The notes under the pieces: generated by a model
What the model was told of the DNA's origin: nothing
Database searches by the model: none
What the model saw: only the letters and a program-made list of their open reading frames with translations
Part shown: positions 3,187 through 57,635 of the stretch, one piece after another
Layout of the letters: each line of letters starts with the position of its first letter
Position numbering within the stretch: the first letter of the stretch is position 1
Made by a program: the position numbers and the translations under genes
Assembly: GCA_945828585.1 (NCBI GenBank)
Contig: CALZRN010000001.1
Location: forward strand, 1 to 58,647
Direction of reading: 5' to 3'
From: an uncultured Bacteroidales bacterium
GTDB lineage: Bacteria > Bacteroidota > Bacteroidia > Bacteroidales > Paludibacteraceae
DNA length: 58,647 nucleotides

Positions 3187-3233
3187 GGATTAGGGGGGGG
3201 GGGGATTAGGGGATTAGCGATTTTCGATTAGCG
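3187..3233. repeat. GATTAG word repeat with embedded G12 homopolymer
   Basis: Sequence is ggattag-G12-attaggggattagcgattttcgattagcg, with the G run at 3193-3204. It spans the stop of the DUF3737 gene and ends next to the ATG at 3186. Confidence 0.9.
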
Positions 3234-3990: not shown

Positions 3991-4008
3991 TTTTTCGGGA
4001 TGACGGGA

Positions 4009-5688: not shown

Positions 5689-5707
5689 AGGCGATTTTGG
5701 GGGAATA

Positions 5708-5838
5708 GAGGGACTAGTCTCACTAGTCTCACTAGATGCACTAGTCTCACTAGACGCACTAGTCTCACTAGACGCACTAGTCTCACTAGATGGACTAGTC
5801 TCACTAGAGGAACTAGAGGGACTAGCCTATCTAGTAGT
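5708..5838. repeat. CTAG-N5 array, 14 units, exact 9-bp phase (intergenic)
   Basis: CTAG every 9 bp from 5714 to 5831. The last unit supplies the TAG stop of the four-helix-bundle gene. Confidence 0.95.
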
Positions 5839-6472: not shown

Positions 6473-6485
6473 AGGATGTATTTTT

Positions 6486-6549
6486 TTGCTAGTCGGGCTA
6501 GTCTCACTAGACGCACTAGAGAATCTAGAGGGGCTAGAGGGACTAGATA
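6486..6549. repeat. CTAG-N5 array, 7 units, exact 9-bp phase (intergenic)
   Basis: CTAG every 9 bp from 6489 to 6543. The last unit supplies the TAG stop of the ACP gene. Confidence 0.95.
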
Positions 6550-6782: not shown

Positions 6783-6821
6783 ATCGTTTCATAACAAGTA
6801 TTCAGTATTCAATATTTGATT

Positions 6822-6860
6822 GGCAAAGGTACTGCTTTTTTTTGAGATATGCAAGTTTTT
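6822..6860 (-). promoter_or_regulatory. Bacteroidota-type promoter internal to the accessory block (upstream of the ACP gene)
   Basis: The minus strand reads CTTGCATATCTCAAAAAAAAGCAGTACCTTTGCC. The -7 box TAccTTTG corresponds to + 6824-6831. Confidence 0.65.
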
Positions 6861-6869
6861 TTTGGAAAA

Positions 6870-6907
6870 ATCGATTAGGGATTAGCGATTTTCGATTAGA
6901 GGATTGC
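6870..6907. repeat. GATTAG word repeat (near-identical to 3205-3233)
   Basis: gattagggattagcgattttcgattag matches the copy at 3205-3232 except for one G. It encodes the LIENR-stop of the PSD-like gene. Confidence 0.9.
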
Positions 6908-7967: not shown

Positions 7968-7986
7968 ACTAGATGGATTAGATAGA

Positions 7987-9090
7987 CTAGCTCTCTAGTA
8001 ACCATTCGACATATTTGCGGACAAGGGATGCAAAGCGGCGGATAGAGGATTCTTTATAATGGGTAGCGGAGTAGCGGAACCATAGCGACAAATCCTGCGG
8101 ATGCTCATGAATCTCTACATCGAGGAGGGCATAGGCGTATTTGGGCTCATATTCCATATCCGGTACCCGCAGCACATTCACTGCATAATTCCAACGCTTG
8201 TTATACGGCGCAGTCAGCGTATAGGGATAATCGCTATGCGCTATACCCGATCGGATTTGATTACGAGCCTCGCGGATCAAATCCGATTTAGGATTGGAGA
8301 TTTGAGATTTGATATTTTTTATTTGGAAAGGAATATCGCGATGGAGACTACCGAAGATAGGTTGTTCTTCAGGTGTTTCGCGTCCCTCGTATGCCCATGT
8401 AAGCGCCGCATCGTCTGTGCCGCAATACTCCGCTATCGCCAAGGCGGTACAAAGCGAGAAAAGCCCCTCATAAGAGAGGTAATGCGCCTCAGAGAAGGTT
8501 TGTATTTTCTCCTGCAAATCGGAATAATCCGATTTATAGATTCCCGGTTTGGGAGGAAGAAGAGTGAACAACCTTTTCCGATCAGTCGTCGGACGGACAG
8601 GAACGGAGGTATTGGCGAATTCGTTAATCAGCCAATCTTGGCTGATACGATAATGCGGGTCTGTCTTATGCTGCTCAAAACGCGCTACATAGCCCCAGTA
8701 ATTATCCGGTTCCAAGGGTAAACCTTCGTACGCACGGCGGATATCATCTAATAATATCTCTCCGCTCTTCCCATCGCCTAAGATGCGGCTTATCTGTGCT
8801 TGGATTATTAAATCCTCGTCTTTTATCTTCAGGTCTATATCATGATACGGGCCATGGAGTATATCTTTCAGGGGTGATGGATAATGATTGCCCCCTCCAT
8901 CCACACGTATCTGAAAAACAGGATGGTTCGCCAAAGCAGTACGGATAGCTTGCTCTATACGGTTTTGCTCCTTTGCTCCTCCGCGCCACACGTAGGTGAA
9001 CGGAAAGGAGTACACTCCCGGCAGCCACCTCGTCATATCATAGACGAGTTGAGAAAAAGGAAGAAGCGGATAGGTTAAATAATAGCCCAT
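7987..9090 (-). CDS. condensation (C) domain-like protein with substituted active-site motif
   Basis: C1-like PLLPFSQLVYDM and C2-like ALANHPVFQIRV are present. C3 reads SRILGDGKS where HHxxxDG is canonical. Start chosen at MGYYLTYPLL (9090); the ORF is open to 9150. Confidence 0.5.
   Translation of the reverse strand: MGYYLTYPLLPFSQLVYDMTRWLPGVYSFPFTYVWRGGAKEQNRIEQAIRTALANHPVFQIRVDGGGNHYPSPLKDILHGPYHDIDLKIKDEDLIIQAQISRILGDGKSGEILLDDIRRAYEGLPLEPDNYWGYVARFEQHKTDPHYRISQDWLINEFANTSVPVRPTTDRKRLFTLLPPKPGIYKSDYSDLQEKIQTFSEAHYLSYEGLFSLCTALAIAEYCGTDDAALTWAYEGRETPEEQPIFGSLHRDIPFQIKNIKSQISNPKSDLIREARNQIRSGIAHSDYPYTLTAPYNKRWNYAVNVLRVPDMEYEPKYAYALLDVEIHEHPQDLSLWFRYSATHYKESSIRRFASLVRKYVEWLLES
8285..8326. 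repeat. CAAATCTCCAAT-family word repeat inside the C-domain-like CDS
   Basis: gatttaggattggagatttgagatttgatattttttatttgg is read as QIKNIKSQISNPKS. It shares the 12-mer CAAATCTCCAAT with 10430-10464. Confidence 0.8.
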
Positions 9091-16496: not shown

Positions 16497-16529
16497 CCTA
16501 TTTATGTTTTAATTATTACACATAATGCG

Positions 16530-16570
16530 GCGCAAAGTTACTACTTTTTTTTAAATAAAAAAAGCAATTC
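16530..16570 (-). promoter_or_regulatory. Bacteroidota-type promoter for the giant surface-protein gene
   Basis: The + strand CAAAGTTA at 16533-16540 is TAacTTTG on the minus strand, about 37 nt upstream of the ATG at 16496. Confidence 0.6.
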
Positions 16571-19281: not shown

Positions 19282-20852
19282 TCCCAGCCTTCAAAAATCT
19301 CCGGGCCATAGATGTTATCTTCATCGGCATCGTGCAGGGGAGTCCATAGTTGCGCAAAGAAGGGGTTTTCTTTAGCCACCTTATCCCAATGCCAAGGAAT
19401 AGTTGAAAGTTGAAAGTTCTCTGCCCAAGGGCACGATCTGAAGGTATGGAAAGTTGAAAGTTGAGCAGTCATCTTCTTGATGGTCTGCTCGTCATACGGG
19501 CAAGGCATGTCAAACGGGCTCCAATGACCACCTAACAAAATCAGTCGACGACCGGCTTTGAAGGTATTGCCGTTGGCGTCCTGCCAGGTATCATCACCGA
19601 GGTACTTACCGCCGCGGAAAGCCGCTGCCTTGTTCAGCTCCTCATCAGTGAGGGTCTCCACGTCCTTGCTCTCGTCGTAGCCGTGATCCAGAAGCACCGG
19701 CGTCTGAGAAGGATGCGAGACATCGAAATGCGCCCAATCGGGGATGGATTGGTATGCCTCCAACGAGCCATAATACGCAGAGATGCGCTGCTCTACTTTG
19801 TTCTTGATCCACCATTGCGTACCATGCTCCTTACTATTCGCCATGAACCACATAGCCGCTTTCACGCAATGCGGGAAGAGTTTGGCGATGCGGGTCTTGG
19901 CGGCGAACTTGATTCCTCCGGGCAGAGACGGCGCCTTTGCCATTTGCGCGAAGTACTCCTTCACCGGCACGTTTGCTCGGAAATGAAGGTAGTTCTCCAG
20001 TTTGTCACCGTCGATGTACCACATGCCATGGAAATTACGGGTGGTGAACCAGTTCGCATTGAAGATCTGCTCGGGTTTCGGACAACCGATACAATCCAAG
20101 AGAAGAGATTCGAACTCATAGTTCGACAACCGGTACTCGGCACCCGAACCGATGTTATAGTAGTTATTCCAGAACTCTGCCGGCACTTCGGGACGGCATA
20201 CGCGTTCCAGGAGCCGACCGCTGTCCTCTACCGTAGCCCATTCCAACACGCCGCGGATAGGCACGTGGAACATGATCGGATCGTAGTTCTTGAGTATCGC
20301 CGGATACAGGACACCCGACTGACGCAGCGACACCCAGGTCTTGATGCCCGAGTCGGTGATGATACGCTCTGCGAGAGCTTTGGTGAGGCCGTAGTGGTCG
20401 TACGCCGAGATGCAGACAGGATCTCCTGCACGTCCCCAATGAAGCGGTTCGCGGCGGTCGCCCATCTGGGCTACCGAACCGATATAGACCACTTTCGGCT
20501 GCTTGCCTTCAGGCTGCGCCAAAACCGCTTTGGTGATATTCTCCGCCGCGGAGATATTCGTGCGGAGGGTTGCCTTTGGTCGATAATCCGCCTGCGGCGA
20601 GACCATGCCGCCTACGTGCAGCACGATATCCGCACCCGTGACTCCTTTCAGTACATCCTCGTACTTCGTGAGGTCGCCCCAGATAACGGTAAGTGAAGGG
20701 TTAGCGGTGAGGGGAGCCAAGAGCTCCTTATTCTTCTTACTCGGTCGCGCCAAGATACGTAAGTCATATTGCTCCGGGTATTTCAGGATCTCTGTCATGC
20801 CTGCATACCCCATCGTACCGGTAGCGCCGGTCAGGAAAACGGTAGTTTTCAT
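19275..20852 (-). CDS. NAD(P)-binding SDR/epimerase-family protein with long C-terminal extension
   Basis: N-terminal Rossmann motif FLTGATGTMG. 525 aa. Contains in-frame GAAAGTT word repeats. Confidence 0.7.
   Translation of the reverse strand: MKTTVFLTGATGTMGYAGMTEILKYPEQYDLRILARPSKKNKELLAPLTANPSLTVIWGDLTKYEDVLKGVTGADIVLHVGGMVSPQADYRPKATLRTNISAAENITKAVLAQPEGKQPKVVYIGSVAQMGDRREPLHWGRAGDPVCISAYDHYGLTKALAERIITDSGIKTWVSLRQSGVLYPAILKNYDPIMFHVPIRGVLEWATVEDSGRLLERVCRPEVPAEFWNNYYNIGSGAEYRLSNYEFESLLLDCIGCPKPEQIFNANWFTTRNFHGMWYIDGDKLENYLHFRANVPVKEYFAQMAKAPSLPGGIKFAAKTRIAKLFPHCVKAAMWFMANSKEHGTQWWIKNKVEQRISAYYGSLEAYQSIPDWAHFDVSHPSQTPVLLDHGYDESKDVETLTDEELNKAAAFRGGKYLGDDTWQDANGNTFKAGRRLILLGGHWSPFDMPCPYDEQTIKKMTAQLSTFHTFRSCPWAENFQLSTIPWHWDKVAKENPFFAQLWTPLHDADEDNIYGPEIFEGWEK
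19400..19466. repeat. GAAAGTT word repeats inside the SDR CDS
   Basis: agttgaaagttgaaagtt (19401-19418) and ggaaagttgaaagttgag (19448-19465) are read as NFQLST and QLSTFH. Confidence 0.85.
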
Positions 20853-20880
20853 TTATGATTTATGATTTCAAATTTATTTC
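20850..20880 (-). repeat. ATCATAAAT-family element, copy 2 (5' of the SDR start codon)
   Basis: The minus strand reads gaaataaatttgaaatcataaatcataaATG. The ATG is the SDR start at 20852. Confidence 0.9.
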
Positions 20881-28448: not shown

Positions 28449-28720
28449 ATCTTTTGGATTAATTGGTTCCACATATCCTGTTTATATATCTGTACGTTGC
28501 CTTCTGAATTTCCTTTTTTAGCAACTAAAATAGCTTCTCCATGTGCATTATTATATACCAAAACGCCATCACAGATCGGCAGATACAGATGTAACAAGTT
28601 GTATATACCGCGTTTGAAGCGGCGACGTATGTCATCCTCCGGGATATTATGCCCGCCCATAATATACAAATTCGGTTGTTGCATTTCGTTTCCAAAACCT
28701 TTGCGGGTGCAAAGGTACAA
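28445..28720 (-). pseudogene. C-terminal remnant of a zeta-toxin / COG4185-type P-loop kinase-like gene
   Basis: GGHNIPEDDIRRRFKRGIYNL resembles the C-terminal half of that family. The P-loop half is absent, and the ORF 5' end runs into a promoter-like sequence. Confidence 0.4.
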
Positions 28721-28745
28721 AAAAATATTGATATACGCAAGCGCC
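28708..28745 (-). promoter_or_regulatory. Bacteroidota-type promoter (CTTGCGTAT...TTTTTTTGTACCTTTGCAC class)
   Basis: The + strand CAAAGGTA at 28710-28717. Near-identical in architecture to the promoter at 29405-29445. Confidence 0.5.
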
Positions 28746-29992: not shown

Positions 29993-30003
29993 GCTAATTT
30001 GTT

Positions 30004-30033
30004 AAATCATAAATTTGAAATCATAAATCATAC
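30004..30033 (+). repeat. ATCATAAAT-family element, copy 3 (5' of the ychF start)
   Basis: aaatcataaatttgaaatcataaatcatac lies immediately before the ATG at 30034. Confidence 0.9.
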
Positions 30034-31140
30034 ATGTCTTTACAATGTGGAATAGTGGGTCTGCCGAATGTAGGCAAGAGTACCCTTTTTAACTGTCTGA
30101 GTAATGCAAAGGCGCAGAGCGCCAATTTTCCTTTCTGTACGATTGAGCCGAACGTAGGCGTGATCACGGTGCCGGACGAGCGGTTGATCAAACTCGGCGA
30201 GATATGTCATCCCGAGCGCGGCGTGATCCCCACGACCGTGGAGATAGTGGATATAGCGGGTCTGGTGAAGGGCGCGAGCAAGGGTGAAGGATTAGGGAAT
30301 AAGTTCCTGGCGAACATCCGCGAGACGGACGCCATCATCCATGTACTGCGTTGCTTCGACGACGAGAACGTGGTGCATGTCGATGGGACGGTGAACCCCG
30401 TGCGCGACAAAGAGATCATCGACGCGGAGTTGCAACTGAAGGACCTGGAGACGGTGGAGAGCCGTATCCAGAAATGCGAGAAAGCCGCTAAAGCCGGAGG
30501 GGATAAGTTTGCGAAGTTGCAGTTAGAGGTGCTGGTTAAGTACCGCGAGGCGCTGTCGCAGGGCAAGAACGCCCGGACGGTAGAGCCGGAGAACAAAGAG
30601 CAGGAGGCGGCAGCGAGAGACCTCTTCCTGCTGACGAACAAACCCGTGATGTACGTCTGCAACGTCGATGAGAGATCGGCTGTCACCGGCAACGCGTACG
30701 TGGAGCAGGTTCGTGAGGCGGTCAAAGACGAGGACGCACAAGTGCTGGTACTCGCCGCGAAGATAGAGAGCGAGATCGCGGAGTTAGAGAGCTACGAGGA
30801 GCGGCAGATGTTCCTCGAGGAGATCGGTCTGGAGGAGAGCGGAGTAAACCGCTTGATCAAGGCTGCTTACGCGCTACTCAAGCTGCGTACGTTCCTCACC
30901 GCCGGTAGCGATGAGGTACGCGCGTGGACGTTCCGTGAGGGCATGAAAGCGCCGCAATGCGCCGGCGTCATCCACACGGATTTTGAGCGGGGGTTCATCC
31001 GTGCGGAGGTGATCAAATACGAGGACTTCGTGGCGCTCGGCGGCGAGGCGCAATGCCGCGCAGCCGGCAAACTTGGCATCGAGGGCAAGGACTACCTCGT
31101 ACAAGACGGAGATATCATGCATTTCTTGTTTAATGTTTAA
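30034..31140 (+). CDS. ychF: redox-regulated ATPase YchF
   Basis: 368 aa with G1 GLPNVGKST, a TGS-like C-terminus and overall YchF/OLA1 organisation. Confidence 0.92.
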   Translation: MSLQCGIVGLPNVGKSTLFNCLSNAKAQSANFPFCTIEPNVGVITVPDERLIKLGEICHPERGVIPTTVEIVDIAGLVKGASKGEGLGNKFLANIRETDAIIHVLRCFDDENVVHVDGTVNPVRDKEIIDAELQLKDLETVESRIQKCEKAAKAGGDKFAKLQLEVLVKYREALSQGKNARTVEPENKEQEAAARDLFLLTNKPVMYVCNVDERSAVTGNAYVEQVREAVKDEDAQVLVLAAKIESEIAELESYEERQMFLEEIGLEESGVNRLIKAAYALLKLRTFLTAGSDEVRAWTFREGMKAPQCAGVIHTDFERGFIRAEVIKYEDFVALGGEAQCRAAGKLGIEGKDYLVQDGDIMHFLFNV

Positions 31141-32196: not shown

Positions 32197-32268
32197 ATAA
32201 AAACAAAGAAGGATGTCTCCCGACATCCCAATCTTTTTACTTAACCTTAAATCTAATACCATGAAAAA
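32190..32268 (-). ncRNA. candidate short transcript from an orphan promoter to the terminator hairpin
   Basis: A minus-strand promoter at 32273-32315 points away from trmD into a gene-free gap of about 110 nt that ends in the hairpin plus T-run. Only a 26-codon ORF is possible. Confidence 0.25.
32211..32228. terminator. bidirectional terminator hairpin
   Basis: GGATGTC-tccc-GACATCC is flanked by an A-run upstream and a T-run downstream, so it can terminate both strands. Confidence 0.55.
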
Positions 32269-32272
32269 CACG

Positions 32273-32315
32273 GTGCAAAAGTACTGCTTTTTTGCGATAT
32301 GACCAAATATTTTTG
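32273..32315 (-). promoter_or_regulatory. Orphan Bacteroidota-type promoter
   Basis: The minus strand reads AAAAAAGCAGTACTTTTGCACCG. The -7 box corresponds to + 32276-32283. Confidence 0.5.
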
Positions 32316-39262: not shown

Positions 39263-39347
39263 AATACGAAACGTTTTAGTTTTATTATTTTTTGTGTGTT
39301 TTTAATAATTTCAGTACACTTTTATTTCCGCCTATTTCGGAAAAACG

Positions 39348-39392
39348 GTGCAAAATTACTGCTTTTTTCTCGAATATGCAAATTTTTTTGCC
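39348..39392 (-). promoter_or_regulatory. Bacteroidota-type promoter for acpP-fabF
   Basis: The minus strand reads TTTGCATATTCGAGAAAAAAGCAGTAATTTTGCACCG. The -7 box corresponds to + 39351-39358. Confidence 0.65.
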
Positions 39393-43998: not shown

Positions 43999-44094
43999 AT
44001 AAATTAGTTAATTTATGTATATTTTCAAAATTCGCTGCAAAATTAGTAAAAAAAAATGATATACACAAGAGCACACGATACTTTTTGCGATTTT

Positions 44095-44130
44095 TCTTGC
44101 TTAATTCAGAAAAAAGCAGTAAATTTGCAG
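44095..44130 (+). promoter_or_regulatory. Bacteroidota-type promoter
   Basis: CTTGCTTAATTCAGAAAAAAGCAGTAAATTTGCAG, with the -7 box at 44120-44127. Confidence 0.65.
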
Positions 44131-44135
44131 CCGAT

Positions 44136-45125: not shown

Positions 45126-45797
45126 ATGAAAAGACCAAGAATCCACAGAGAAGGACGCAACATGATTATCATCATCGTGTTGCTCTTGTTTATCATCAAC
45201 ATCCCGGTGTACATGTATTTCTCCCATTGGGTGTTCGGCGTGACGCTGATTCTTACAGCCACGTTACTGGTGTTCGTCACCTATTTCTTCCGTAACCCCG
45301 TACGAGTGCTGGAGATAGATGATCCGAACTTCATCATCGCCCCCGCAGACGGTCGCGTAGTGGTCGTCGAGCCTACGGACGAGAACGAGTATTTCCATGA
45401 GAAGAAGTTGCAGGTGTCCATCTTCATGTCGCCTTTCAACGTCCATGCCAACTGGTACCCCATAGAGGGAAATATCCTCGTCTCCGAGCATCAGAAAGGC
45501 CATCACAAAGGTGCATGGTTGCCTAAGTCCAGCACCGAGAACGAGCGCTCGCTCGTCGTCATCGAGACGCCTTCGAAAATCCAGATCGCCGTGCGGCAGA
45601 TCGCCGGAGCCATGGCACGACGCATCGTCACCTACGCCAAGCCCGGACATCAGGCGCATCGCAACACCCATCTCGGTTTTATCAAACTCGGTAGCCGCGT
45701 GGACATGTACCTACCGCTCGATACGGAGATGTTCGTCACCGTCGGAGAAGCCGTGCGCGGTAATGAGACCATCTTAGGACGCCTCGCCGAGAAATAA
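45126..45797 (+). CDS. psd: phosphatidylserine decarboxylase family protein (short, housekeeping type)
   Basis: 223 aa with N-terminal TM segments, APADGRVV and the FIKLGSRVDMYLP self-processing-type motif. Confidence 0.85.
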   Translation: MKRPRIHREGRNMIIIIVLLLFIINIPVYMYFSHWVFGVTLILTATLLVFVTYFFRNPVRVLEIDDPNFIIAPADGRVVVVEPTDENEYFHEKKLQVSIFMSPFNVHANWYPIEGNILVSEHQKGHHKGAWLPKSSTENERSLVVIETPSKIQIAVRQIAGAMARRIVTYAKPGHQAHRNTHLGFIKLGSRVDMYLPLDTEMFVTVGEAVRGNETILGRLAEK

Positions 45798-45835
45798 TCC
45801 CCTAATCCCCTAACCCGTTAAACCGTCAAATCATC
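45797..45835. repeat. CCCCTAA/CCGTTAAA word repeat between psd and deoC
   Basis: aatcccctaatcccctaacccgttaaaccgtcaaatcatc ends at the deoC ATG. Confidence 0.85.
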
Positions 45836-46718: not shown

Positions 46719-49058
46719 ATGAATAAAATCCTTTCTAAGAGATTTTTCTCGGAAAATGTAGCGGAGCTGATTGTTGAGGCTCCGCTCATTGCGCGTAGCC
46801 GTAGAGCCGGACATTTTGTCATTATTCGTGTCGATGACCACTCCGAGCGTGTCCCTCTGACCATCGCCGGAGCCGACATCGAAAAAGGAACCATCACCCT
46901 CGTGGTACAACAGGTGGGCGCTTCGACCCATAAACTCCTCGCCATGAACCCCGGCGATTGTATCCACGACGTAGTCGGTCCGCTCGGACGCGCCACACGT
47001 ATAGAGAAGTACGGTACGGTCGTTTGTGCCTGCGGTGGAGTCGGCGCTGCGCCGATGTTACCTATCGCCGAGGCACTCAAGAAAGCCGGAAACAAAGTCA
47101 TCACCGTCCTTGCGGCGCGTAACAAAGATCTCATCATTCTGAAGGATGAACTATCTAAGTGGTCCGACGAACTGATCGTCATGACCGACGATGGATCCAT
47201 GGGCAAACAAGGTGTCGTAACCGTCGGCGTCGAAGAAGTGATCAACCGCGAGACCGTCAACAAATGTATCACCATCGGTCCGGCGATCATGATGAAGTTT
47301 GTCGCCCTCACGACCGCCAAATATAACATCCCGACCGAGGCTTCCCTCAACACCATCATGGTCGATGGAACCGGCATGTGCGGCGCTTGCCGCGTTACCG
47401 TAGGAGGAAAAACCAAGTTCGTCTGTGTTGATGGACCGGAGTTTGATGCCCATGAGGTGGACTGGACTGAGATGCTCTCTCGCATGAAGTCCTACAAAGC
47501 CGAAGAAGCCGAAGCGCTTACTGCATATTTAAACCCCAAAAACGACAGTCGAACGACGGTCAACCGACGGTCAACCGACGGTCAAAGCCTATGTAAGACC
47601 GAGGTAAGACCGGTAGAACCTTTCGCCGGTACCCCCAAAGACCGCGTAGCGATTCCCCGTGTGCAGATGCCGGAACTCCGTCCGGAGGTACGCGTCAAGT
47701 CCCTGCACGAGGAGGTCAACCAGGGTCTGACCTTCGAACAAGCTATCACGGAGTCCCATCGTTGCCTCAACTGCAAGAACCCCTCTTGCGTACAGGGTTG
47801 TCCGGTGAACATCAATATCCCCGGTTTCATCAAGACCCTGGAGAAAGGCGATATCCTCGGTGCTGCAGCGATCATCAAAGAGTCATCCTCCCTGCCCGCT
47901 GTCTGCGGTCGTGTCTGTCCGCAGGAGAAACAATGCGAGGCAAATTGTATCCACCATAAGATGGGTCATCAGCCTGTCGCCATCGGCTACCTCGAGCGTT
48001 TCTGCGCCGACTACGCAAATGGTCTGTCAGCGGAGCGGTCTGTCAGCAATAGCGGTCTGTCAGGCGAAGCCGGTCTGTCAGTGAAGCGGTCTAAGATTGC
48101 GGTGGTTGGTAGTGGTCCTGCCGGACTTACCTTCGCAGGCGATGCAGCCAAATACGGATACGAAGTGCACGTCTTCGAAGCCCTGCACGAGATCGGCGGT
48201 GTACTCAAATACGGCATCCCGGAGTTCCGTCTGCCGAACGCGATCGTCGATAAAGAGATCGACGGCCTGCGTGCCCTCGGTGTACAGTTCCATACGGACA
48301 CGATCATCGGCAAGACCATCTCTGTCAAGGAACTCGAAGAGCAAGGCTTCAAGGGTATCTTCGTCGGCTCGGGAGCAGGTCTGCCGCGATTCATGAATAT
48401 CCCCGGAGAGAACCTCAACGGCGTCCTCTCCTGCAACGAATACCTGACCCGCGTCAACCTTATGGACGCTTCCAACCCTGCGACCGATACTCCGCTGCTC
48501 TATGGTAAGAACGTAGCGGTCATCGGTGGTGGAAACACCGCCATGGATGCCGTTCGTACCGCCAAAAGGCTCGGTGCCGAGCGGGCGATAATCATCTACC
48601 GCCGCTCCGAAGAAGAGATGCCGGCGCGTATCGAAGAGGTGCATCATGCCAAACAAGAAGGGATCGAGTTCCTGACTCTCCATAACCCCATTGAGTACCA
48701 TGCTGATGAGAACGGACGTGTCTGTGAAGCCGTCCTTCAGGTGATGGAACTCGGCGAACCCGATGAGTCCGGACGTCGCTGCCCGGTGCCCGTAGAAGGC
48801 AAGACCGTCACGCTCCCCGTGGATCTCGTGATCGTCGCAGTAGGCGTCTCCCCGAACCCGCTCATCCCTTCGTCCGTCGAAGGACTCGAGATCAGCAAGA
48901 AAGGTACGATCGTCGTCAATGAAGGGATGCAATCTGCTCTTCCGATGCTCTTCGCCGGAGGCGATATAGTCCGCGGTGGAGCCACCGTCATCCTCGCGAT
49001 GTCCGATGGCCGCAAAGCCGCCAAAGCAATGCACGAGTATTTAAATCATAAATCATAA
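46719..49058 (+). CDS. fusion of PyrK-like FAD/NAD(P)/2Fe-2S electron-transfer subunit and GltD-like NADPH-dependent glutamate synthase small chain
   Basis: The N-terminal part is a ferredoxin-reductase fold with CGACRVTV...CVDGP. The C-terminal part has the 4Fe-4S motif CLNCKNPSCVQGCP and VVGSGPAGL/VIGGGNTAMD Rossmann motifs. Confidence 0.85.
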   Translation: MNKILSKRFFSENVAELIVEAPLIARSRRAGHFVIIRVDDHSERVPLTIAGADIEKGTITLVVQQVGASTHKLLAMNPGDCIHDVVGPLGRATRIEKYGTVVCACGGVGAAPMLPIAEALKKAGNKVITVLAARNKDLIILKDELSKWSDELIVMTDDGSMGKQGVVTVGVEEVINRETVNKCITIGPAIMMKFVALTTAKYNIPTEASLNTIMVDGTGMCGACRVTVGGKTKFVCVDGPEFDAHEVDWTEMLSRMKSYKAEEAEALTAYLNPKNDSRTTVNRRSTDGQSLCKTEVRPVEPFAGTPKDRVAIPRVQMPELRPEVRVKSLHEEVNQGLTFEQAITESHRCLNCKNPSCVQGCPVNINIPGFIKTLEKGDILGAAAIIKESSSLPAVCGRVCPQEKQCEANCIHHKMGHQPVAIGYLERFCADYANGLSAERSVSNSGLSGEAGLSVKRSKIAVVGSGPAGLTFAGDAAKYGYEVHVFEALHEIGGVLKYGIPEFRLPNAIVDKEIDGLRALGVQFHTDTIIGKTISVKELEEQGFKGIFVGSGAGLPRFMNIPGENLNGVLSCNEYLTRVNLMDASNPATDTPLLYGKNVAVIGGGNTAMDAVRTAKRLGAERAIIIYRRSEEEMPARIEEVHHAKQEGIEFLTLHNPIEYHADENGRVCEAVLQVMELGEPDESGRRCPVPVEGKTVTLPVDLVIVAVGVSPNPLIPSSVEGLEISKKGTIVVNEGMQSALPMLFAGGDIVRGGATVILAMSDGRKAAKAMHEYLNHKS
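47543..47587. repeat. CGACGGTCAAC 11-bp tandem repeat in the fusion linker
   Basis: cgacagtcgaacgacggtcaaccgacggtcaaccgacggtcaaag is read as NDSRTTVNRRSTDGQS. Confidence 0.9.
48021..48092. repeat. GGTCTGTCAG core repeated 4x with 6-8-nt variable spacers
   Basis: Units start at 48021, 48037, 48054 and 48072, with a partial unit at 48088. Read as GLSAERSVSNSGLSGEAGLSVKRS. Confidence 0.9.
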
Positions 49059-49075
49059 ATTTGAAATCATAAATG
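49042..49075 (+). repeat. ATCATAAAT-family element, copy 4 (stop of the fusion gene to the start of dacB)
   Basis: aaatcataaatcataaatttgaaatcataaATG encodes NHKS-stop of the upstream gene and supplies the ATG at 49073. Confidence 0.9.
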
Positions 49076-50455
49076 CACTTACTAAGTGCCATAATCCTCT
49101 CCGTCAACTTCCTGACAAGCCACCCCATTACGGGGCAGGCGAATATGTCCGTCTATGTCCAGAACATGACGACCGGCGAAGTGATCGACTCCTACCGCGA
49201 GAACCATGTGGTACCGCCCGCGTCGGTGATGAAACTGCTGACGACGGCTGCCGCACTCGAGACGATGGGACCGGGATTTCGGTTCCCGACGATCATCGAG
49301 TACACCGGCACGATTGAGAACGGTACCCTCCACGGCGACTTATACGTCCGCGGAGGATGCGACCCTTCCTTGGGATGGAAAGGCCGCACGGCGTTCCTCG
49401 ATCAATGGGTCAAGGCGATACAGAAAGCCGGCATCCAACGCATCGACGGCGGTGTAGTAGCCGACATGACGATGCTGGATGGCGAGGCGCAGAACCCGAA
49501 TTGGCTCTGCGAAGATGCCGGTAACTACTACGCACCGGGCATCTTCAGCCTCAACTATCTCGGCAACACGATGAATATCGTCCTCAAGAGCGGAGAGGTA
49601 GGTTCAACGGCTGCGGTCGTGAAGACCGAACCCGAAGTACGAGGCCTCCGATGGATCAACCATGTGCGGTGCGAGAAAATCACCTACGACGGTGCTTTTG
49701 TCACTGGTTTGCCGTACAGCAACGAACGCTACCTTACCGGCGCGGTGCCCTCTAACTTAGGCACTTTCGGCGTCAAGGGCGACCTGCCGAACCCCGGACT
49801 CTTGTTGGCGCAACATCTGCAAGCACGCTTAGCCGCAGCGGGTATCTCCGTCAAACGCGAAGCGACTTACATGGCAGATTATAACCCCTTGACCCCGCCT
49901 CGGACGGAACTATACACCCATTATTCCGAACCCCTGTCGGAGATCATCAAGGAGACGAATGTTAACTCGAATAACCTCTACGCCGAGTCGCTCTTCCGAT
50001 ACTTAGGTACGCGTTATACCCTGCCCGGCACCATCCATAACAGCCAGGACTTGCTGCGCGACTACTGGCGTCGCCGCGGAGTCCCTGTGCAGAACGCGAT
50101 CATCAAAGACGGTTGCGGTCTCGCGCCGCAGGATGCCGTCAGCGCCAAAGCGTTTGTGCAGCTGCTCAGCATCATGTCCAAGAGTCCGAACAAAGAGGCA
50201 TGGATAGCTTCGCTGCCGATAAGCGGAAAGACAGGTACGCTGAAGTCCCTTTGTCCCGGTACACCGCTGGAAGGACGCATCCACGCCAAGAGCGGTACCA
50301 TCGCCGGAACGAAGAATTTTGCAGGCTACATCGACATGCCTAACGGCGATACCTGGGTCTTCGCGATCCTCATCAACTCCGCGCCCGGCAAGGCTCGTAA
50401 CATCCAAACGGTCATCCAACAATACCTGCTCGATGTATATAAGCACCACCTATAG
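49073..50455 (+). CDS. dacB: D-alanyl-D-alanine carboxypeptidase/endopeptidase (PBP4, peptidase S13)
   Basis: 460 aa with PASVMKL (SxxK), a YSNERYL-region SxN-like motif and KSGT(IAG). Confidence 0.85.
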   Translation: MHLLSAIILSVNFLTSHPITGQANMSVYVQNMTTGEVIDSYRENHVVPPASVMKLLTTAAALETMGPGFRFPTIIEYTGTIENGTLHGDLYVRGGCDPSLGWKGRTAFLDQWVKAIQKAGIQRIDGGVVADMTMLDGEAQNPNWLCEDAGNYYAPGIFSLNYLGNTMNIVLKSGEVGSTAAVVKTEPEVRGLRWINHVRCEKITYDGAFVTGLPYSNERYLTGAVPSNLGTFGVKGDLPNPGLLLAQHLQARLAAAGISVKREATYMADYNPLTPPRTELYTHYSEPLSEIIKETNVNSNNLYAESLFRYLGTRYTLPGTIHNSQDLLRDYWRRRGVPVQNAIIKDGCGLAPQDAVSAKAFVQLLSIMSKSPNKEAWIASLPISGKTGTLKSLCPGTPLEGRIHAKSGTIAGTKNFAGYIDMPNGDTWVFAILINSAPGKARNIQTVIQQYLLDVYKHHL

Positions 50456-52403: not shown

Positions 52404-53465
52404 TCAGAGGGAGAAGAGGTATTCCCAAGCCTCATCGGCTTCGTCAGCAGTGATCGTCAGATTGACCACCGGTGAACCGACAGCCTCAAGGAGCGTGACG
52501 TTGATCTCAGCGGCACGCTCGTTCTTTTTATCCTGTTTCATGAGCGCAATCAGCCGCTCGCGGTCGGAACATTTGCAGGCAGGCTTGCCGTAAGTATGTA
52601 TCATGATCTGCGTCAGCTGTTGCAGCACCTCGCGCTCGCAGCCGAGTTTGGTTACCGACAGGTACAATTCCGCAATCATGCCATACAGCACCGCGTATCC
52701 GTGGCTTAGACCGGCTTCGCCTGACAGACTTAGCTCTTCGAGCGCGTGACCGAAGGTATGGCCGAAATTCAGCACCTTGCGCAGTCCTTCTTCTTTCGGG
52801 TCCGCCGCAACGATCGCCTCTTTGACCGCTACGCACCGCCGGATCAGCGGCGTCAACTCCTCAATCGGCATCGCCTCCAAATCGTAGTTGAGCAGGTCGT
52901 GCCAAAGAGAGCTCTTTTCTCCCTCCCTACGGGGGAGGGTCGGGGTGGGGCTTTCAACAAGCCCCGTCTTCAGCATCTCTGCAAAACCGTTCAGCATCTC
53001 TTTCGCCGGCAGCGTCTGCAGCCATCCGGGCCAGATGAGCGTCTCCACCGGAGGGGCGAACACCCCGATACTGTTTTTGAGACCATGGTAGTTAAAGCCC
53101 GTCTTGCCGCCCGTCGAAGCATCCACCATCGCAAGGAGCGTCGTCGGGACATTGATATAATCCACGCCGCGTTTATAAGTGGCTGCTGCAAAACCTACAA
53201 GGTCCGTCAGTACCCCTCCGCCGATAGCGACCACCACACCGCGACGCGTGAGGCCGATAGAGAAGAAAAAATCCCAAATCTTCTGCACCGTCTCAAGGGT
53301 CTTTTCCGATTCAGACACCGATAGTGTACAGCATGAGAGTCCTATTTGCCCCTTACTTGCCTCCACGATGCCCCTTACTTGCTCATCGACTACAAAACAG
53401 ACCTGATCGGGTTCGTACGAGCTCAGAATCTTCGATAAGGCACTATGTAAATCCTCGTAAATCAT
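52404..53465 (-). CDS. aroB: 3-dehydroquinate synthase
   Basis: Start set at MIYEDLHS, downstream of the promoter. GGGVLTDLVGFAA and HTFGHALE motifs are present. Contains the GC-hairpin insert. Confidence 0.88.
   Translation of the reverse strand: MIYEDLHSALSKILSSYEPDQVCFVVDEQVRGIVEASKGQIGLSCCTLSVSESEKTLETVQKIWDFFFSIGLTRRGVVVAIGGGVLTDLVGFAAATYKRGVDYINVPTTLLAMVDASTGGKTGFNYHGLKNSIGVFAPPVETLIWPGWLQTLPAKEMLNGFAEMLKTGLVESPTPTLPRREGEKSSLWHDLLNYDLEAMPIEELTPLIRRCVAVKEAIVAADPKEEGLRKVLNFGHTFGHALEELSLSGEAGLSHGYAVLYGMIAELYLSVTKLGCEREVLQQLTQIMIHTYGKPACKCSDRERLIALMKQDKKNERAAEINVTLLEAVGSPVVNLTITADEADEAWEYLFSL
52915..52955 (+). repeat. GC-rich hairpin element, copy 1 (in frame in aroB)
   Basis: ctCCCTCCCtacggGGGAGGGtcGGGGTGGGGCttt is read on the minus strand as SPTPTLPRREGE. 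Confidence 0.9.
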
Positions 53466-53473
53466 AAAATCCG

Positions 53474-53512
53474 CTGCAAAGTTACACTTTTTTTTGCGTA
53501 TGTGCAAATTTT
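53474..53512 (-). promoter_or_regulatory. Bacteroidota-type promoter for aroB
   Basis: The minus strand reads TTTGCACATACGCAAAAAAAAGTGTAACTTTGCAGC. The -7 box corresponds to + 53477-53484. Confidence 0.55.
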
Positions 53513-53527
53513 GTTGTAATTTTGTAG
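53497..53527 (+). promoter_or_regulatory. Bacteroidota-type promoter for uvrD (divergent, interleaved with the aroB promoter)
   Basis: TGCGTATGTGCAAATTTTGTTGTAATTTTGTAG, with the -7 box at 53517-53524. Confidence 0.55.
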
Positions 53528-53532
53528 CGATT

Positions 53533-55791
53533 ATGGAATTTTTAGATCAACTCAATACTACCCAACGCGCTGCGGTCACGGCTACGGAAGGGCCGTCGCT
53601 CATCGTCGCAGGTGCCGGTTCGGGCAAGACCAGAGTCTTGACCTACCGCATCGCTTATCTCTTGTCACAAGGCGTACCCGCCGGGAATATCTTAGCCCTA
53701 ACGTTCACCAACAAAGCCGCGCGGGAGATGAAGGAGCGTATTCAGAAACTCGTCGGCAACGACGCGCGTTACCTCTGGATGGGTACCTTCCATAGTATCT
53801 GCGCGAAACTGCTGAGACACGATGCAGAGAAACTCGGCTTCACCCGCGATTTCACTATCTACGACACCTCCGACAGCAAGTCCGTCATCAAAGCTATCTG
53901 CAAGGAGCGCGGGCTGGACGAGAAGATATACAAACCGACAGTGGTCTTAGGACGGATCTCCATGGCGAAGAACAACCTGATCTCCCCTTCCCAGTATGGG
54001 CAGAACCGCGACTTGCTGCAGGCCGACCGCGAGGCACGGCTGTACGACATCACCACCGTCTATGCCCTCTACGAGGCGCGACTCAAAGCAGCCAACGCCA
54101 TGGATTTTGACGACCTGCTGATTAACATGCTACGCCTCATGGACCAGTACCCCGACGTGCGCGAGCAGCTACAACTGATGTTCCGATACGTGCTCGTCGA
54201 TGAGTACCAGGATACGAACTATGTCCAGTACCTCCTCGTCGGCAGACTCGCTGCACCCCAGGATAATATCTGCGTCGTCGGCGATGATGCGCAGAGTATC
54301 TACTCCTTCCGCGGAGCGGACATACGCAACATCCTCAATTTCCGTCAGCAGTACCCCCGGGCGCAACTCTTCAAACTCGAGCGCAACTACCGCTCGACCC
54401 GCAATATCGTCAATGCCGCTAACTCCCTCATCCATAAGAACATCCACCAGATTGAGAAGACCGTCTTCTCCGAGAAAGAGGAGGGACAACCCCTGCGGCT
54501 CAATGCCTATATGGACGACCGCTCCGAAGCCAACGGCGTAGCCGAGCAAATCGCCAAAGCCCATACCCAGTACGACTACGACGACATCGCCATCCTCTAT
54601 CGGACGAACGCGCAGAGCCGTGTCTTCGAGAACGAACTGCGCAAACGCAACATCCCCTACCGCATCTATGGCGGCACCTCCTTCTACCAGCGCAAGGAGA
54701 TCAAGGACGCTCTCGGCTACTTCCGCCTGGCGGTCAACCCCCGCGATAACGAAGCCCTGCTCCGTATCGTCGGCTTTCCCGGTCGTGGCATCGGAGACAC
54801 GACGATGAAGAAAGTGTCGGCAAACGCCATCGCTCACCACCTGTCCTACCTCGAGGTCATGCGCCTGCCCGAAGAGTCCGGGCTGGATGTGAGCGCAGCG
54901 ACCATGAAAAAACTGCAGGCTTTTGCCCTCCTCATGGACCAACTCGCCCAACTCAGCGAAGAGACCGACGCTTATACTTTTGCTGAACAAACGCTCCGCA
55001 CGACAGGTGTCATGACCGCACTCGCTATCGACACCACGCCTGAAGGCATCGACCGCGCGCAGAACGTTCAGGAGCTCCTCAACGCCATCCGTGAGTTCGT
55101 CGTCCAGAGGCAGGAGGAAGGCATCGACTTCACCCCCATCACCGACTTCCTCTCCGAAGTCAGCCTCCAGACCGACCAGGACGAGAACCTCTCTGACACC
55201 ACCGAACGCGTGACGCTGATGACGGTGCACGCCGCCAAAGGTCTGGAGTTCCCCGTCGTCTTCATCGGTGGCATGGAGGAGAACCTCTTCCCCAGCCAGT
55301 TCTGTACCAAACCCGGTGAGATAGAGGAAGAGCGGCGGTTACTCTATGTCGCTATCACCCGAGCTATGGAGCGGTGCTATCTCTCCTACGCCCGCCAGCG
55401 TTTCCGTAACGGTCAGATGGCGTTCAACAGTCCCTCCCGTTTCCTCAATGACATCGACCGACAGTACCTCGACCTTGCCCGACCGGCCTTCGGCCTGCAA
55501 GAACACAGACCGGCTGGTAGTTTTGGTCTCTCTAGTATATCTAGTATATCTAGTCCCTCTAGAATGCCTAGTCCTGCGCGGTTTACACGCGTGGTGTCTT
55601 CCCCCCTCCAAGGGGGGAGTGAGGGGGGCTTCCTTGCCGGCGATAGAGTCACCCACCGCGTCTTCGGAGACGGCACCGTCGTCCGCGTCTATCGGGACGA
55701 GATCACGGAGAATGATAAGATTGAGATTAACTTCGATACCCAGGGCACCAAGACCCTGCTCCTTACCCACGCGAAATTAGAGAAGATCTAA
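53533..55791 (+). CDS. uvrD: ATP-dependent DNA helicase (UvrD/PcrA/Rep family)
   Basis: Start set at MEFLDQLNTTQRAAV. Motifs AGAGSGKT, DEYQDTN and TVHAAKGLEF are present. The C-terminal region carries a CTAG array and a GC-hairpin insert. Confidence 0.92.
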   Translation: MEFLDQLNTTQRAAVTATEGPSLIVAGAGSGKTRVLTYRIAYLLSQGVPAGNILALTFTNKAAREMKERIQKLVGNDARYLWMGTFHSICAKLLRHDAEKLGFTRDFTIYDTSDSKSVIKAICKERGLDEKIYKPTVVLGRISMAKNNLISPSQYGQNRDLLQADREARLYDITTVYALYEARLKAANAMDFDDLLINMLRLMDQYPDVREQLQLMFRYVLVDEYQDTNYVQYLLVGRLAAPQDNICVVGDDAQSIYSFRGADIRNILNFRQQYPRAQLFKLERNYRSTRNIVNAANSLIHKNIHQIEKTVFSEKEEGQPLRLNAYMDDRSEANGVAEQIAKAHTQYDYDDIAILYRTNAQSRVFENELRKRNIPYRIYGGTSFYQRKEIKDALGYFRLAVNPRDNEALLRIVGFPGRGIGDTTMKKVSANAIAHHLSYLEVMRLPEESGLDVSAATMKKLQAFALLMDQLAQLSEETDAYTFAEQTLRTTGVMTALAIDTTPEGIDRAQNVQELLNAIREFVVQRQEEGIDFTPITDFLSEVSLQTDQDENLSDTTERVTLMTVHAAKGLEFPVVFIGGMEENLFPSQFCTKPGEIEEERRLLYVAITRAMERCYLSYARQRFRNGQMAFNSPSRFLNDIDRQYLDLARPAFGLQEHRPAGSFGLSSISSISSPSRMPSPARFTRVVSSPLQGGSEGGFLAGDRVTHRVFGDGTVVRVYRDEITENDKIEINFDTQGTKTLLLTHAKLEKI
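55529..55575. repeat. CTAG-N5 array, 5 units, exact 9-bp phase (inside uvrD)
   Basis: CTAG at 55532, 55541, 55550, 55559 and 55568. Read as SSISSISSPSRMPSP. Confidence 0.95.
55598..55633 (+). repeat. GC-rich hairpin element, copy 2 (in frame in uvrD)
   Basis: cttCCCCCCtccaaGGGGGGagtgaGGGGGGCttcc is read as SSPLQGGSEGGFL. Confidence 0.85.
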
Positions 55792-56396
55792 GCGTAAATA
55801 AGGTACCCGGCTACGCCGGCAAGAATAATCAATATGATAGGATGACTGAGAAAAGATAAGCCTACCCCAAGCCCCTCCCTTAAAGGAGGGGATGTTTTTT
55901 GTATCAGCTCTTTCGTCATCTCCGGCAGGATGGTGAAGAGTGCCACAAGCGCGAAGATAAGCCAGGATATCCCGTCGATAAAGGTCTCCGGTCTGACGAG
56001 CATCAGGGCTGCCGAGGCGATCAGACCGATTACCGTGAAACGCAGCATCCGAAGTGTCCGGGTAAAATACGGGTTGTCGTGAAACCGCTTGTCAATCCAG
56101 AAATACGCCCTGCAAACCGATAGCATGATGATGAGACTCGGCAGAACGATCGCCGTCGTCGTCAGGACCGATCCCCAGACCGAACCCGTGGCGGTGTAAC
56201 CGACGTACGTCGCGCAGTTGATACCTATCGGACCCGGAGTCACCTGACTCACCGCCACGATATCCACGAACTCCTGCGGACTCATCCATCCGTACCGCTC
56301 TACCTCCATCTGGATAAGCGACGTGATTGCCAAGCCTCCTCCAAAACCGAAGAGACCTATCTTAAAGAACGAAAGAAACAACTGCAGATAGAGCAT
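55788..56396 (-). CDS. chrA: chromate transporter family protein (second half of split ChrA)
   Basis: Start set at MLYLQLFLSFFKIGLFGFGGG. CHR domain motifs are present. Contains a GC-hairpin insert. Confidence 0.8.
   Translation of the reverse strand: MLYLQLFLSFFKIGLFGFGGGLAITSLIQMEVERYGWMSPQEFVDIVAVSQVTPGPIGINCATYVGYTATGSVWGSVLTTTAIVLPSLIIMLSVCRAYFWIDKRFHDNPYFTRTLRMLRFTVIGLIASAALMLVRPETFIDGISWLIFALVALFTILPEMTKELIQKTSPPLREGLGVGLSFLSHPIILIILAGVAGYLIYA
55858..55894 (-). repeat. GC-rich hairpin element, copy 3 (inverted orientation, in frame in chrA)
   Basis: The + strand aaGCCTACCCCaaGCCCCTCCcttaaaGGAGGGGatg is the reverse complement of the family consensus. Read as SPPLREGLGVGLS. Confidence 0.9.
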
Positions 56397-56932
56397 ACAA
56401 TCGTGATTAGAATGACCCAAACGGGATTAACATGACCGAGCCAGATAGCCAGCGCGGCGGCTAACGAAATCAGCAAGGGCGCTGCGTTGCGCCACTCCCT
56501 TCCCTTTACGGAGGGGCTGGGGGTAGGCCTCTTCATGGCGTTCCTCGCCAACTTCACCAGTGGCGCTGCGATCAGCGCCACTACAGCCGGACGAATACCC
56601 TTGAACACCGCTTCCACCGCCGGCAACTCTTTCCATTCGCTGAAGACCATAGCGATCAGCAGGATGATGACGAATGACGGCAGTACAGCCCCTAAGACCG
56701 CACCGACCACACCCTTCCATCCGCCTATACGCCAACCGATGAAGATAGCGCTATTGACTGCGATGATGCCCGGAGCAGCTTGCGCCAAGGCGATCATGTT
56801 CAGAAACTCCTCTTCGTCGATCCATCCTCTCCGGTCCACCACCTCACGCTGGATCAAAGCCAACATCGCGTAACCTCCACCTATCGTGAACGTCCCGATC
56901 TTCAAATATGTCAGAAATAAACTCCAGAACAA
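56357..56932 (-). CDS. chrA: chromate transporter family protein (first half of split ChrA)
   Basis: MFWSLFLTYLKIGTFTIGGGYAM and CHR domain motifs. Contains a GC-hairpin insert. Confidence 0.8.
   Translation of the reverse strand: MFWSLFLTYLKIGTFTIGGGYAMLALIQREVVDRRGWIDEEEFLNMIALAQAAPGIIAVNSAIFIGWRIGGWKGVVGAVLGAVLPSFVIILLIAMVFSEWKELPAVEAVFKGIRPAVVALIAAPLVKLARNAMKRPTPSPSVKGREWRNAAPLLISLAAALAIWLGHVNPVWVILITIVCSICSCFFRSLR
56495..56534 (+). repeat. GC-rich hairpin element, copy 4 (in frame in chrA)
   Basis: ctCCCTTCCctttacGGAGGGGctGGGGGTAGGCctc is read on the minus strand as RPTPSPSVKGREW. Confidence 0.9.
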
Positions 56933-57552: not shown

Positions 57553-57577
57553 AAAGTGGAATTGTTTGTCTTTCGGG

Positions 57578-57615
57578 CTGCAAAGGTACTGCTTTTTTTT
57601 GATATATGCAAGCGC
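57578..57615 (-). promoter_or_regulatory. Bacteroidota-type promoter for udk
   Basis: The minus strand reads CTTGCATATATCAAAAAAAAGCAGTACCTTTGCAGCC. The -7 box corresponds to + 57581-57588. Confidence 0.65.
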
Positions 57616-57635
57616 GCACGCGTTTTTTTCCTTTT

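Follow-up and report, generated by a model that had tools for sequence, protein, structure and literature searches.

The stretch of DNA considered here, 58,647 nucleotides of contig CALZRN010000001.1 from an uncultured, rumen-type Bacteroidales bacterium of the Paludibacteraceae (GenBank assembly GCA_945828585.1), which we call the window, carries a short GC-rich hairpin element four times, each time inside a protein-coding gene (Table 1). The host genes encode 3-dehydroquinate synthase (aroB), a UvrD/PcrA-type helicase (uvrD), and the two members of a chromate-transporter pair (chrA1 and chrA2); gene callers start chrA1 in related contigs at a Met at about 56866. A first-pass annotation, made from the letters alone, had reported these copies, quoted their peptides and likened them to the Rickettsia palindromic elements (RPEs) found inside genes. 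All four copies are present and are translated in frame with no stop, and the peptides given for them are right. The hairpins are also where they were placed, apart from a shift of one position in chrA2, where the stem lies at 55872-55891 and not at 55873-55892.

Table 1. Copies of the hairpin element in the window, their host genes, and the blocks gained or lost at two of the sites.
Feature	Positions	Strand (for copies, of the G-rich strand)	Strand of host gene	Structure or basis
Copy 1, in aroB	52916-52954	+	-	7-bp stem; profile hidden Markov model (HMM) E = 8.7e-7
Copy 2, in uvrD	55598-55633	+	+	8-bp stem; profile HMM E = 5.4
Copy 3, in chrA2	55856-55894	-	-	profile HMM E = 1.2e-8
Copy 4, in chrA1	56493-56532	+	-	profile HMM E = 1.5e-4
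aroB (3-dehydroquinate synthase)	52404-53465	-		Pfam PF01761 and PF24621, PDB homologues, AlphaFold model
36-nt indel block in aroB	52908-52943	+		DNA alignment; hairpin and left flank
uvrD (UvrD/PcrA-type helicase, C-terminal Tudor domain)	53533-55791	+		Pfam PF00580, PF13361, PF21196
chrA2 (second gene of chromate-transporter pair)	55788-56399	-		Pfam PF02417
chrA2 replacement block	55853-55910	-		alignment with empty alleles L006, L127-L133
chrA1 (first gene of chromate-transporter pair)	56357-56932	-		Pfam PF02417; gene calls in L003, L006

The aroB copy, TCTCCCTCCCTACGGGGGAGGGTCGGGGTGGGGCT on its G-rich strand (at 52916-52954, TCTCCCTCCCTACGGGGGAGGGTCGGGGTGGGGC), encodes the peptide PTPTLPRREGEKSS; the uvrD copy, CTTCCCCCCTCCAAGGGGGGAGTGAGGGGGGC, encodes SSPLQGGSEGGFL; the chrA2 copy, ATCCCCTCCTTTAAGGGAGGGGCTTGGGGTAGGCTT (on the reverse strand, ATCCCCTCCTTTAAGGGAGGGGCTTGGGGTAGGC), encodes TSPPLREGLGVGLS; and the chrA1 copy, CTCCCTTCCCTTTACGGAGGGGCTGGGGGTAGGCC (at 56493-56532, CTCCCTTCCCTTTACGGAGGGGCTGGGGGTAGGC), encodes RPTPSPSVKGREW. 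Stems of 7-8 bp enclose loops of 3-7 nt, with one G:T pair in the chrA1 stem, and as DNA the hairpins are predicted to be of modest stability (-7 to -9 kcal/mol; z-scores of -0.2 to -3.6). A strict pattern for the element matched twice in the window and never in 100 shuffles. A generic descriptor that asks for a C-rich arm, an arm complementary to it and a G-rich tail was drawn up post hoc, with the four copies already known; it matched just those four in the window, whereas 200 dinucleotide-preserving shuffles gave 0.26 matches on average and never more than 2. We also built a profile HMM from 57 copies in other Bacteroidales genomes and none from the window, anchoring it by hand because a MAFFT alignment misplaces the 5' arm where loop lengths are unequal. 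Run over the 58.6 kb, this model returned the chrA2, aroB and chrA1 copies as significant and matched nothing further. With its E-value of 5.4, the uvrD copy is therefore a divergent or degenerate relative, while the other three are clear members of the family; the four-way similarity that had been claimed thus stands against shuffles, and by the profile HMM for three copies, the uvrD copy being weakly related. GC skew in the window does not switch near the four-copy cluster, so we see no link to an origin or terminus of replication. An AGAGCT motif 9-20 nt upstream of three copies was taken as chance, since conservation in the family ends 3 nt out.

The element extends well beyond this contig. 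Searching species-representative genomes with the pattern CCCTCC-N3-8-GGAGGG-N1-4-GGGGTRGG gave at least 120 matching genome stretches, and at least 120 viral contigs in IMG/VR match as well (L207-L326, 41 of them below 56% GC), so the concern that the four copies might have no counterparts elsewhere falls away. Among the matches listed, there are two main host groups, the Sphingomonadales and the rumen and gut Bacteroidales, the latter represented by Prevotella, Prevotellaceae, Paludibacteraceae, Bacteroidaceae, Alistipes and Segatella maculosa DSM 19339; a few matches fall in cyanobacteria, Cytophagia and Oscillospiraceae. The Bacteroidales consensus is (t)CTC-CCCTCCC-loop-GGGAGGGG-YY-GGGGGTGGG-TCT(t), that is, a unit of about 38 nt (36-40) in which a 7-8-bp CCCTCCC/GGGAGGG hairpin is followed by a G-tract, GGGGGTGGG or GGGGTAGGC, with three conserved bases on each side. 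Conservation is gone 3 nt past either end of the unit, and a tandem array in L083 has a period of 38 nt. The retrieval pattern itself fixes both hairpin arms; a single copy, in L003, carries a compensatory stem (CCCTTCC/GGAAGGG). By regular expression (four runs of at least three G, 1-7 nt apart), 50 of 57 family copies hold a predicted G-quadruplex (G4) motif overlapping the 3' arm of the hairpin; among the four window copies, the aroB copy alone has one (52931-52950). Copies occur singly, as inverted pairs and in tandem arrays; most Bacteroidales copies and all four in the window are single, and inverted pairs include those of L124 (49 nt), L032 (51 nt), L077 (84 nt) and L015 (110 nt). Local density can be high, with four copies within 3.6 kb of the 58.6-kb window, five within 5 kb in the relative L003, and clusters at other loci too, which is compatible with local hopping or local duplication.

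Copies inside genes are also found in other genomes. In-frame copies with Pfam domains on both sides lie in GlmS, ManC (mannose-1-phosphate guanylyltransferase), MurI (glutamate racemase), PriA (in L124, as an inverted doublet), a GH97 protein and a SpoU methylase; by reading of open reading frame (ORF) sequences, others lie in MetH, a putative GH2-type glycosidase and an unannotated 478-aa ORF of L003. Across the family, in-frame copies are read in both orientations and in at least two frames, with PPLREGLGVG or PLQGGAGGG recurring in one sense and PTPNPSLKGGE in the other. One DNA unit is thus translated in different ways within unrelated proteins, and the proposal of a DNA-level element is supported. 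The copies printed from low-GC viral contigs have Bacteroidales-type flanks; phages may either carry the repeat or be colonised by it. Rfam returned no family match for the window region or for ten other copy-bearing loci, six 18-19-mers of the element had no match in the papers searched, a literature search on Prevotella and repetitive extragenic palindromic (REP) sequences yielded nothing relevant, and we found no description of such repeat-in-gene insertion for this Bacteroidales group. In L043, a Prevotella metagenome-assembled genome, the element appears to encode the hydrophobic core of a lipoprotein signal peptide in genes 2380-4722 and 4834-5665 (- strand), for example ...LAPLLLGGVGGGLFLSSC, possibly a co-option of the repeat.

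The segments in the window are DNA insertions. The first-pass annotation had asked whether distant orthologues hold homologous residues at these positions; those of AroB, ChrA1 and ChrA2 lack the insert. It had also suggested looking for polymorphism between strains and for permissive positions, and in-frame indels occur at three of the four sites, while the inserts fall in a low-confidence coil of the AroB AlphaFold model, in loops of ChrA1 and ChrA2, and in a linker of UvrD. An alignment of 120 AroB homologues has a hypervariable spot between TGL(I/V) and LW. The sequence at this spot is ESPT-PTLPRREGEKSS-LW in the window and ESPT-LW in three relatives; many homologues of 91-93% identity form a group with another insert, EPSDVRSQHSDG, and more distant relatives have 3-4 residues there. 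In the AlphaFold model of AroB (mean pLDDT, the predicted local distance difference test, 85.8), residues 171-186 are predicted as coil with a pLDDT of about 56, between helices 154-170 and 187-192. Among strains, the 36-nt aroB block is present in the window, L005 and L006 and missing from the L001 and L002 alleles, with a boundary ambiguity of at most 1 nt and no target duplication. These "empty" alleles still carry the tail of the element, GGTGGGGCT (52944-52952), and in the aroB tree, in which alleles are mosaic, they are nested among filled ones; for both reasons we rejected the idea that they are pre-insertion sites. In other lineages the AroB loop (about 52905-52955 of the window) holds an unrelated hairpin insert, CCGTCAAATGTCAGAAGTCAGCATTCAGACGG.

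The chrA2 site gives one datable gain. In a loop preceding the last hydrophobic segment, 58 nt stand in place of 16 nt of ancestral sequence, so that 42 nt (14 codons) are added on balance. The window carries the insert, as do L003 and L004 (95.6% nucleotide identity over the region), and L006 (93.4%) does not. It is missing also from the 13 closest aligned relatives of a metagenome scan, the majority of which have, as L006 does, PEMTKNKMTEVLSHP or a sequence close to it. That scan, made for contigs of the same species, returned only relatives at 86% identity or less and no further strain-level pairs. In ChrA1 orthologues of 45-75% identity the loop is short, SAKI-TW, with no insert, and the ChrA1 clade around the window has diverse inserts of 11-19 residues. 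At the DNA level the window holds the full chrA1 element, L003-type alleles lack 9 nt with one arm, and L006 lacks 9 nt with the other, which argues for a full-length ancestor eroding in frame. The unit has thus been gained in one sub-lineage (chrA2) and lost piecemeal elsewhere (chrA1, aroB); copies that lie within genes keep the frame in every case. Other mini-repeats also occupy these loops in relatives: ChrA2 has tandem heptamers (CTCTCAA or CGTCCAT) and a hairpin, TCCACTG...CAGTGGA, and ChrA1 has a KAKGEGL triple repeat. With the relatives that carry unrelated loop inserts in mind (L003, L004, L129, L134-L138), the AroB and ChrA loops look like places where mini-repeats land or turn over again and again.

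The uvrD copy sits in the linker between the UvrD_C domain, which ends at residue 621, and the Tudor domain, which starts at 703 (Pfam limits). This linker is hypervariable, with two allele types among strains that are equal in length and differ in their short repeats. In the window it also contains in-frame 9-bp repeats, translated as SSISSISS (55531-55575). A second mini-repeat family, TCTGTCAG-GCGAAGC-CGGTCT or GACAGACCGC, with a GCGAAGC mini-hairpin, occurs in the window in aroB (52706-52730) and uvrD (about 54564); it adds 39 nt to aroB of L006, replaces uvrD sequence in L003 and L004, and fills the L006-type uvrD linker.

Most copies lie outside genes. By a crude ORF-based gene caller, on which all placement and polarity counts rest, 42 of 59 Bacteroidales copies among the matches listed are extragenic, and the 36 of these with a gene called on both sides fall between same-direction (24) or convergent (12) genes, never between divergent ones. 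Low-GC viral contigs give 17 unidirectional, 1 convergent and 0 divergent placements, so that none of 54 intergenic copies (36 genome, 18 viral) separates divergent genes. Copies within 30 nt past a stop codon are, moreover, strongly polar: the C-rich strand is in the mRNA in 12 of 12 genome copies and in 7 of 9 low-GC viral copies (loci L011, L043, L064, L067, L071, L072, L083, L084, L099, L118 and L126; viral L207 onwards). In the mRNA, the stop codon is followed by A-rich sequence and then by AGA-CCCACCCCC-NN-CCCCTCCC-loop-GGGAGGG-GAG. What follows the hairpin in this favoured orientation is GAG and mixed sequence, with no U-tract, so it is not a classical intrinsic (Rho-independent) terminator; in the opposite orientation the G-tract lies between the stem and TCTTT. 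Copies inside genes are found either way round, two each in the window.

Given the observed family membership, insertion relative to orthologues, strain polymorphism, loop location and genomic distribution, we favour, with a probability of roughly 0.68, the reading that the four sequences are copies of a REP-like dispersed DNA repeat of rumen and gut Bacteroidales whose coding copies are tolerated insertions, by analogy with RPEs and intragenic REPs. Most copies of the repeat lie outside genes, usually just past a gene's 3' end. Coding copies can survive because the repeat is nearly stop-free in any frame; a copy landing inside a gene would persist if the length added is a multiple of three and the site is a loop or linker in which additional residues do no harm. 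The window would then hold four survivors, in an inter-helix coil of AroB, the flexible linker of UvrD/PcrA and two chromate-transporter loops, and selection would leave just such stop-free copies of permitted length at permissive sites, to be eroded later by in-frame deletions of a hairpin arm or of the whole hairpin. We infer that copies would be made by a trans-acting transposase that recognises hairpins in single-stranded DNA, the leading candidate being an HUH/Y1 enzyme resembling the REP-associated tyrosine transposases (RAYTs). The absence of a target duplication at the aroB indel fits a Y1-transposase mechanism. By analogy with their IS200/IS605 relatives, RAYT-like enzymes are not expected to duplicate their targets. 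REPs are believed to be mobilised by RAYT-type enzymes (PMC3733652); TnpA_REP subclasses 1.2, 2.4 and 2.6 are present in Bacteroidetes, and some TnpA_REP genes have in their flanks unusual secondary structures of which the genome holds further copies (PMC6006769).

Several observations weigh against this reading. A search for the HUH...Y motif over the window and 126 copy loci returned no HUH/Y1 transposase-like ORF, and clustering of ORFs within 1.5 kb of copies gave no recurrent family, just phage structural genes and chance pairs; the clustered loci L072, L043, L083 and L032, inspected for a RAYT, contain an HU-like gene (by eye), lipoproteins, a transporter and truA, and no transposase. 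Most copies lack the conserved tag, GTAG or CGTC, by which classical REPs are marked. The chrA2 gain is a replacement (58 nt for 16 nt) and no clean insertion, and the empty aroB alleles, with their retained tail and their nesting in a mosaic tree, are probably deletions or the recombinant spread of one deletion. By eye, the window copies are just 75-85% alike, so no recent burst is visible; family counts are matches listed from contig pieces and not copies per genome; and the strong polarity at gene ends hints at function or selection beyond neutral insertion. Of the first-pass proposal of a selfish, RPE-like element, the insertion and the in-frame copies stand, and the selfish, mobile part is what the lack of a transposase, target duplication or clean event leaves conditional.

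The polarity is the starting point of the best-placed alternative, namely that the repeat is mainly a functional cis-acting signal at gene 3' ends, with the coding copies as by-products, a view with which mobility would still be compatible. As candidate roles, the hairpin might stabilise the mRNA, the C-rich tract might load Rho, or the sequence might switch from hairpin to G-quadruplex or i-motif and back. An RNA or DNA structural signal had been named from the outset as the other option, and it is the orientation of post-stop copies relative to transcription, together with the absence of copies between divergent genes, that keeps this reading in play; the predicted G4 motifs over the hairpin 3' arm and a near-identical 20-nt core in Bacteroidales and Sphingomonadales point the same way. 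The favoured orientation, however, lacks a U-tract, Rfam holds no matching family, and the polarity counts depend on crude gene calls. The four window copies, moreover, are intragenic and evenly split between orientations, where such a signal could not act likewise, and coding copies are eroding through arm deletions. We regard a signal as the main explanation as possible but unlikely. A bolder combination, to which we give less credence still and which we consider quite unlikely, would make these sequences cross-phylum repeats of Bacteroidales, phages and Sphingomonadales that switch between hairpin and G-quadruplex (or i-motif): their fixed post-stop polarity would mark a transcript 3'-end signal, such as a Rho-loading C-tract or a template-strand G4, they would be spread by an unrecognised enzyme, and in-frame copies along with other mini-repeats would make the AroB, ChrA and UvrD-linker loops hot spots of strain variation in rumen bacteria.

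It is also conceivable that no transposition was involved, the segments having arisen and turned over locally in unconstrained loops by slippage, template switching at hairpins or recombination between alleles, with mutational bias accounting for their likeness. Unrelated mini-repeats (heptamer tandems, other hairpins) do occur in the ChrA2, ChrA1 and AroB loops elsewhere, further short repeats lie in frame in the window (9-mers in the gene for an acyl-CoA ligase and heptamers in that for a phosphatidylserine decarboxylase), aroB alleles are mosaic, and the chrA2 gain replaced existing sequence. Local events cannot, however, account for a 38-nt consensus with defined ends at dozens of unlinked sites, in several genera and in phages, nor for its presence in both orientations and in inverted doublets, and we noticed no neighbouring template sequence at the four window sites in the strain alignments; we hold this origin to be very unlikely. 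That the segments are ancestral or selected peptide features of their hosts, or assembly artefacts, can be dismissed: several strains retain the peptides, but distant orthologues lack the segments, unrelated proteins contain the same DNA translated in both orientations and in two or more frames, and copies recur in independent ENA, Logan, JGI and NCBI assemblies.

Why should such insertions matter? Small palindromic repeats in frame within housekeeping genes have been known from Rickettsia, some Proteobacteria and Verrucomicrobia, and among the Bacteroidales of rumen and gut (Prevotella, Paludibacteraceae), and in their phages, such repeat insertion now appears to be common too. As a phenomenon it has precedents; what is new is the host clade, and the spread through housekeeping genes and phages, the polarity and the cross-phylum core also merit follow-up. 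Through the inserts, conserved enzymes acquire odd peptides rich in G and P, as well as indels specific to single strains. The inserts can mislead gene callers, the alignment of orthologues and the binning of metagenomes, and could be of use as strain markers. The post-stop polarity and the core common to the Sphingomonadales repeats may point to a 3'-end function or to an unknown mobilising enzyme. At least one carrier is in culture, Segatella maculosa DSM 19339.

The window contains several further repeats. CTAG-bearing 9-bp tandem repeats (CTAGTCTCA, CTAGACGCA and variants) lie at 4128-4266 and 5076-5241, in frame in an ORF for an AMP-binding acyl-CoA ligase (4009-5688, - strand), where they encode SETSETSET and SSASS runs; more CTAG 9-bp arrays, at 5661-5853, 6471-6549 and 7968-7990, lie between neighbouring ORFs. 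The heptamers ATTTATG and ATTTCAG at 7011-7053 are in frame in the phosphatidylserine decarboxylase ORF (6882-7967, - strand), giving INHKSEIINHK, and heptamers of the same type recur at 20848-20877, 30002-30036 and 49041-49079. Repeats of the GGATTAGGGG type lie at 3187-3216 and 45795-45824; the former includes a run of 12 G (3193-3204), by sequence one of just three canonical G4 motifs in the window. A motif of 35-50 nt around TGCAAAGGTAC...TTTTTTG.TATATGCAAG occurs in both orientations at 6814-6863, 16519-16551, 28708-28741, 32266-32315, 39341-39390, 44036-44133, 53467-53524 (in the aroB-uvrD intergenic spacer) and 57571-57620, and is probably a Bacteroidetes promoter region (TTTG / TAnnTTTG type) with a conserved leader.

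Among known systems, REPs and REPINs, in which two inverted REPs with a short spacer form the replicating unit, share much with this element (Di Nocera et al. 2013, PMC3733652; Bertels and Rainey 2011, PMC3116915): a short imperfect palindrome of 20-40 nt in many dispersed copies, mostly extragenic, between same-direction or convergent and not divergent genes, as singles, inverted doublets and arrays, with no target-site duplication and with occasional in-frame copies, some of them in genes for replication and repair (in our case UvrD/PcrA, and PriA in L124). The first-pass annotation had held in-frame palindromic repeats to be rare outside Rickettsia, which does not agree with the literature, as intragenic REPs are known from several phyla, many of them within replication and repair genes (Di Nocera et al. 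2013, PMC3733652). In the REP superfamilies of that study, one end of the palindrome bears a conserved tetranucleotide, GTAG or CGTC (PMC3733652). The element described here has no such conserved tag, so membership in either superfamily is unsupported: GTAG occurs in a minority of copies, among them window copies 3 and 4, where it lies 3' of the stem after the G-run, and CGTC in none. Instead, its stem is adjoined by a conserved G-tract, its ends are CTC and GGGGGTGGG-TCT, and its G-rich strand is also a predicted G-quadruplex motif. Inverted pairs occur, as in REPINs, but most copies are single. RAYT genes are usually single-copy, and no flanking RAYT gene (REPtron) was found in the loci read, which are pieces of contigs. 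The host clade, rumen and gut Bacteroidales with their phages, is also new for an element of this kind.

Other comparisons are instructive. [quoted passage not shown] Like such MITEs as Correia/NEMIS, RUP and Nezha, the present element is a small non-autonomous repeat beside or inside genes, but with a unit of 38 nt, no terminal inverted repeats and no target duplication at the aroB indel, it is not a MITE. The Sphingomonadales look-alikes share the core CCCTCCC-loop-GGGAGGGG-YY-GGGGGTGGG with C(T)C on the 5' side, often as inverted pairs 35-70 nt apart, a similarity in part imposed by the search pattern, for which common descent and convergence are both possible. They differ in their longer stems, for example CCCTCCCGC/GCGGGAGGG, in having no conserved 3' flank, and in their hosts of about 65% GC; neither they nor the Bacteroidales element correspond to the CGTC-1 REP reported for Sphingopyxis. 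RPEs are about 100-150 bp long and AT-rich and are not known outside Rickettsia. By contrast, the element in the window is 36-40 nt, GC-rich and mostly extragenic, and it belongs to free-living or gut Bacteroidales. What it shares with RPEs (Ogata et al. 2002 and Claverie and Ogata 2003, as cited in PMC3733652) is the insertion of palindromes in frame, in differing frames, into unrelated housekeeping genes at sites compatible with the protein fold, with presence or absence varying between relatives; size and host set the two apart, and no relationship in sequence is expected.

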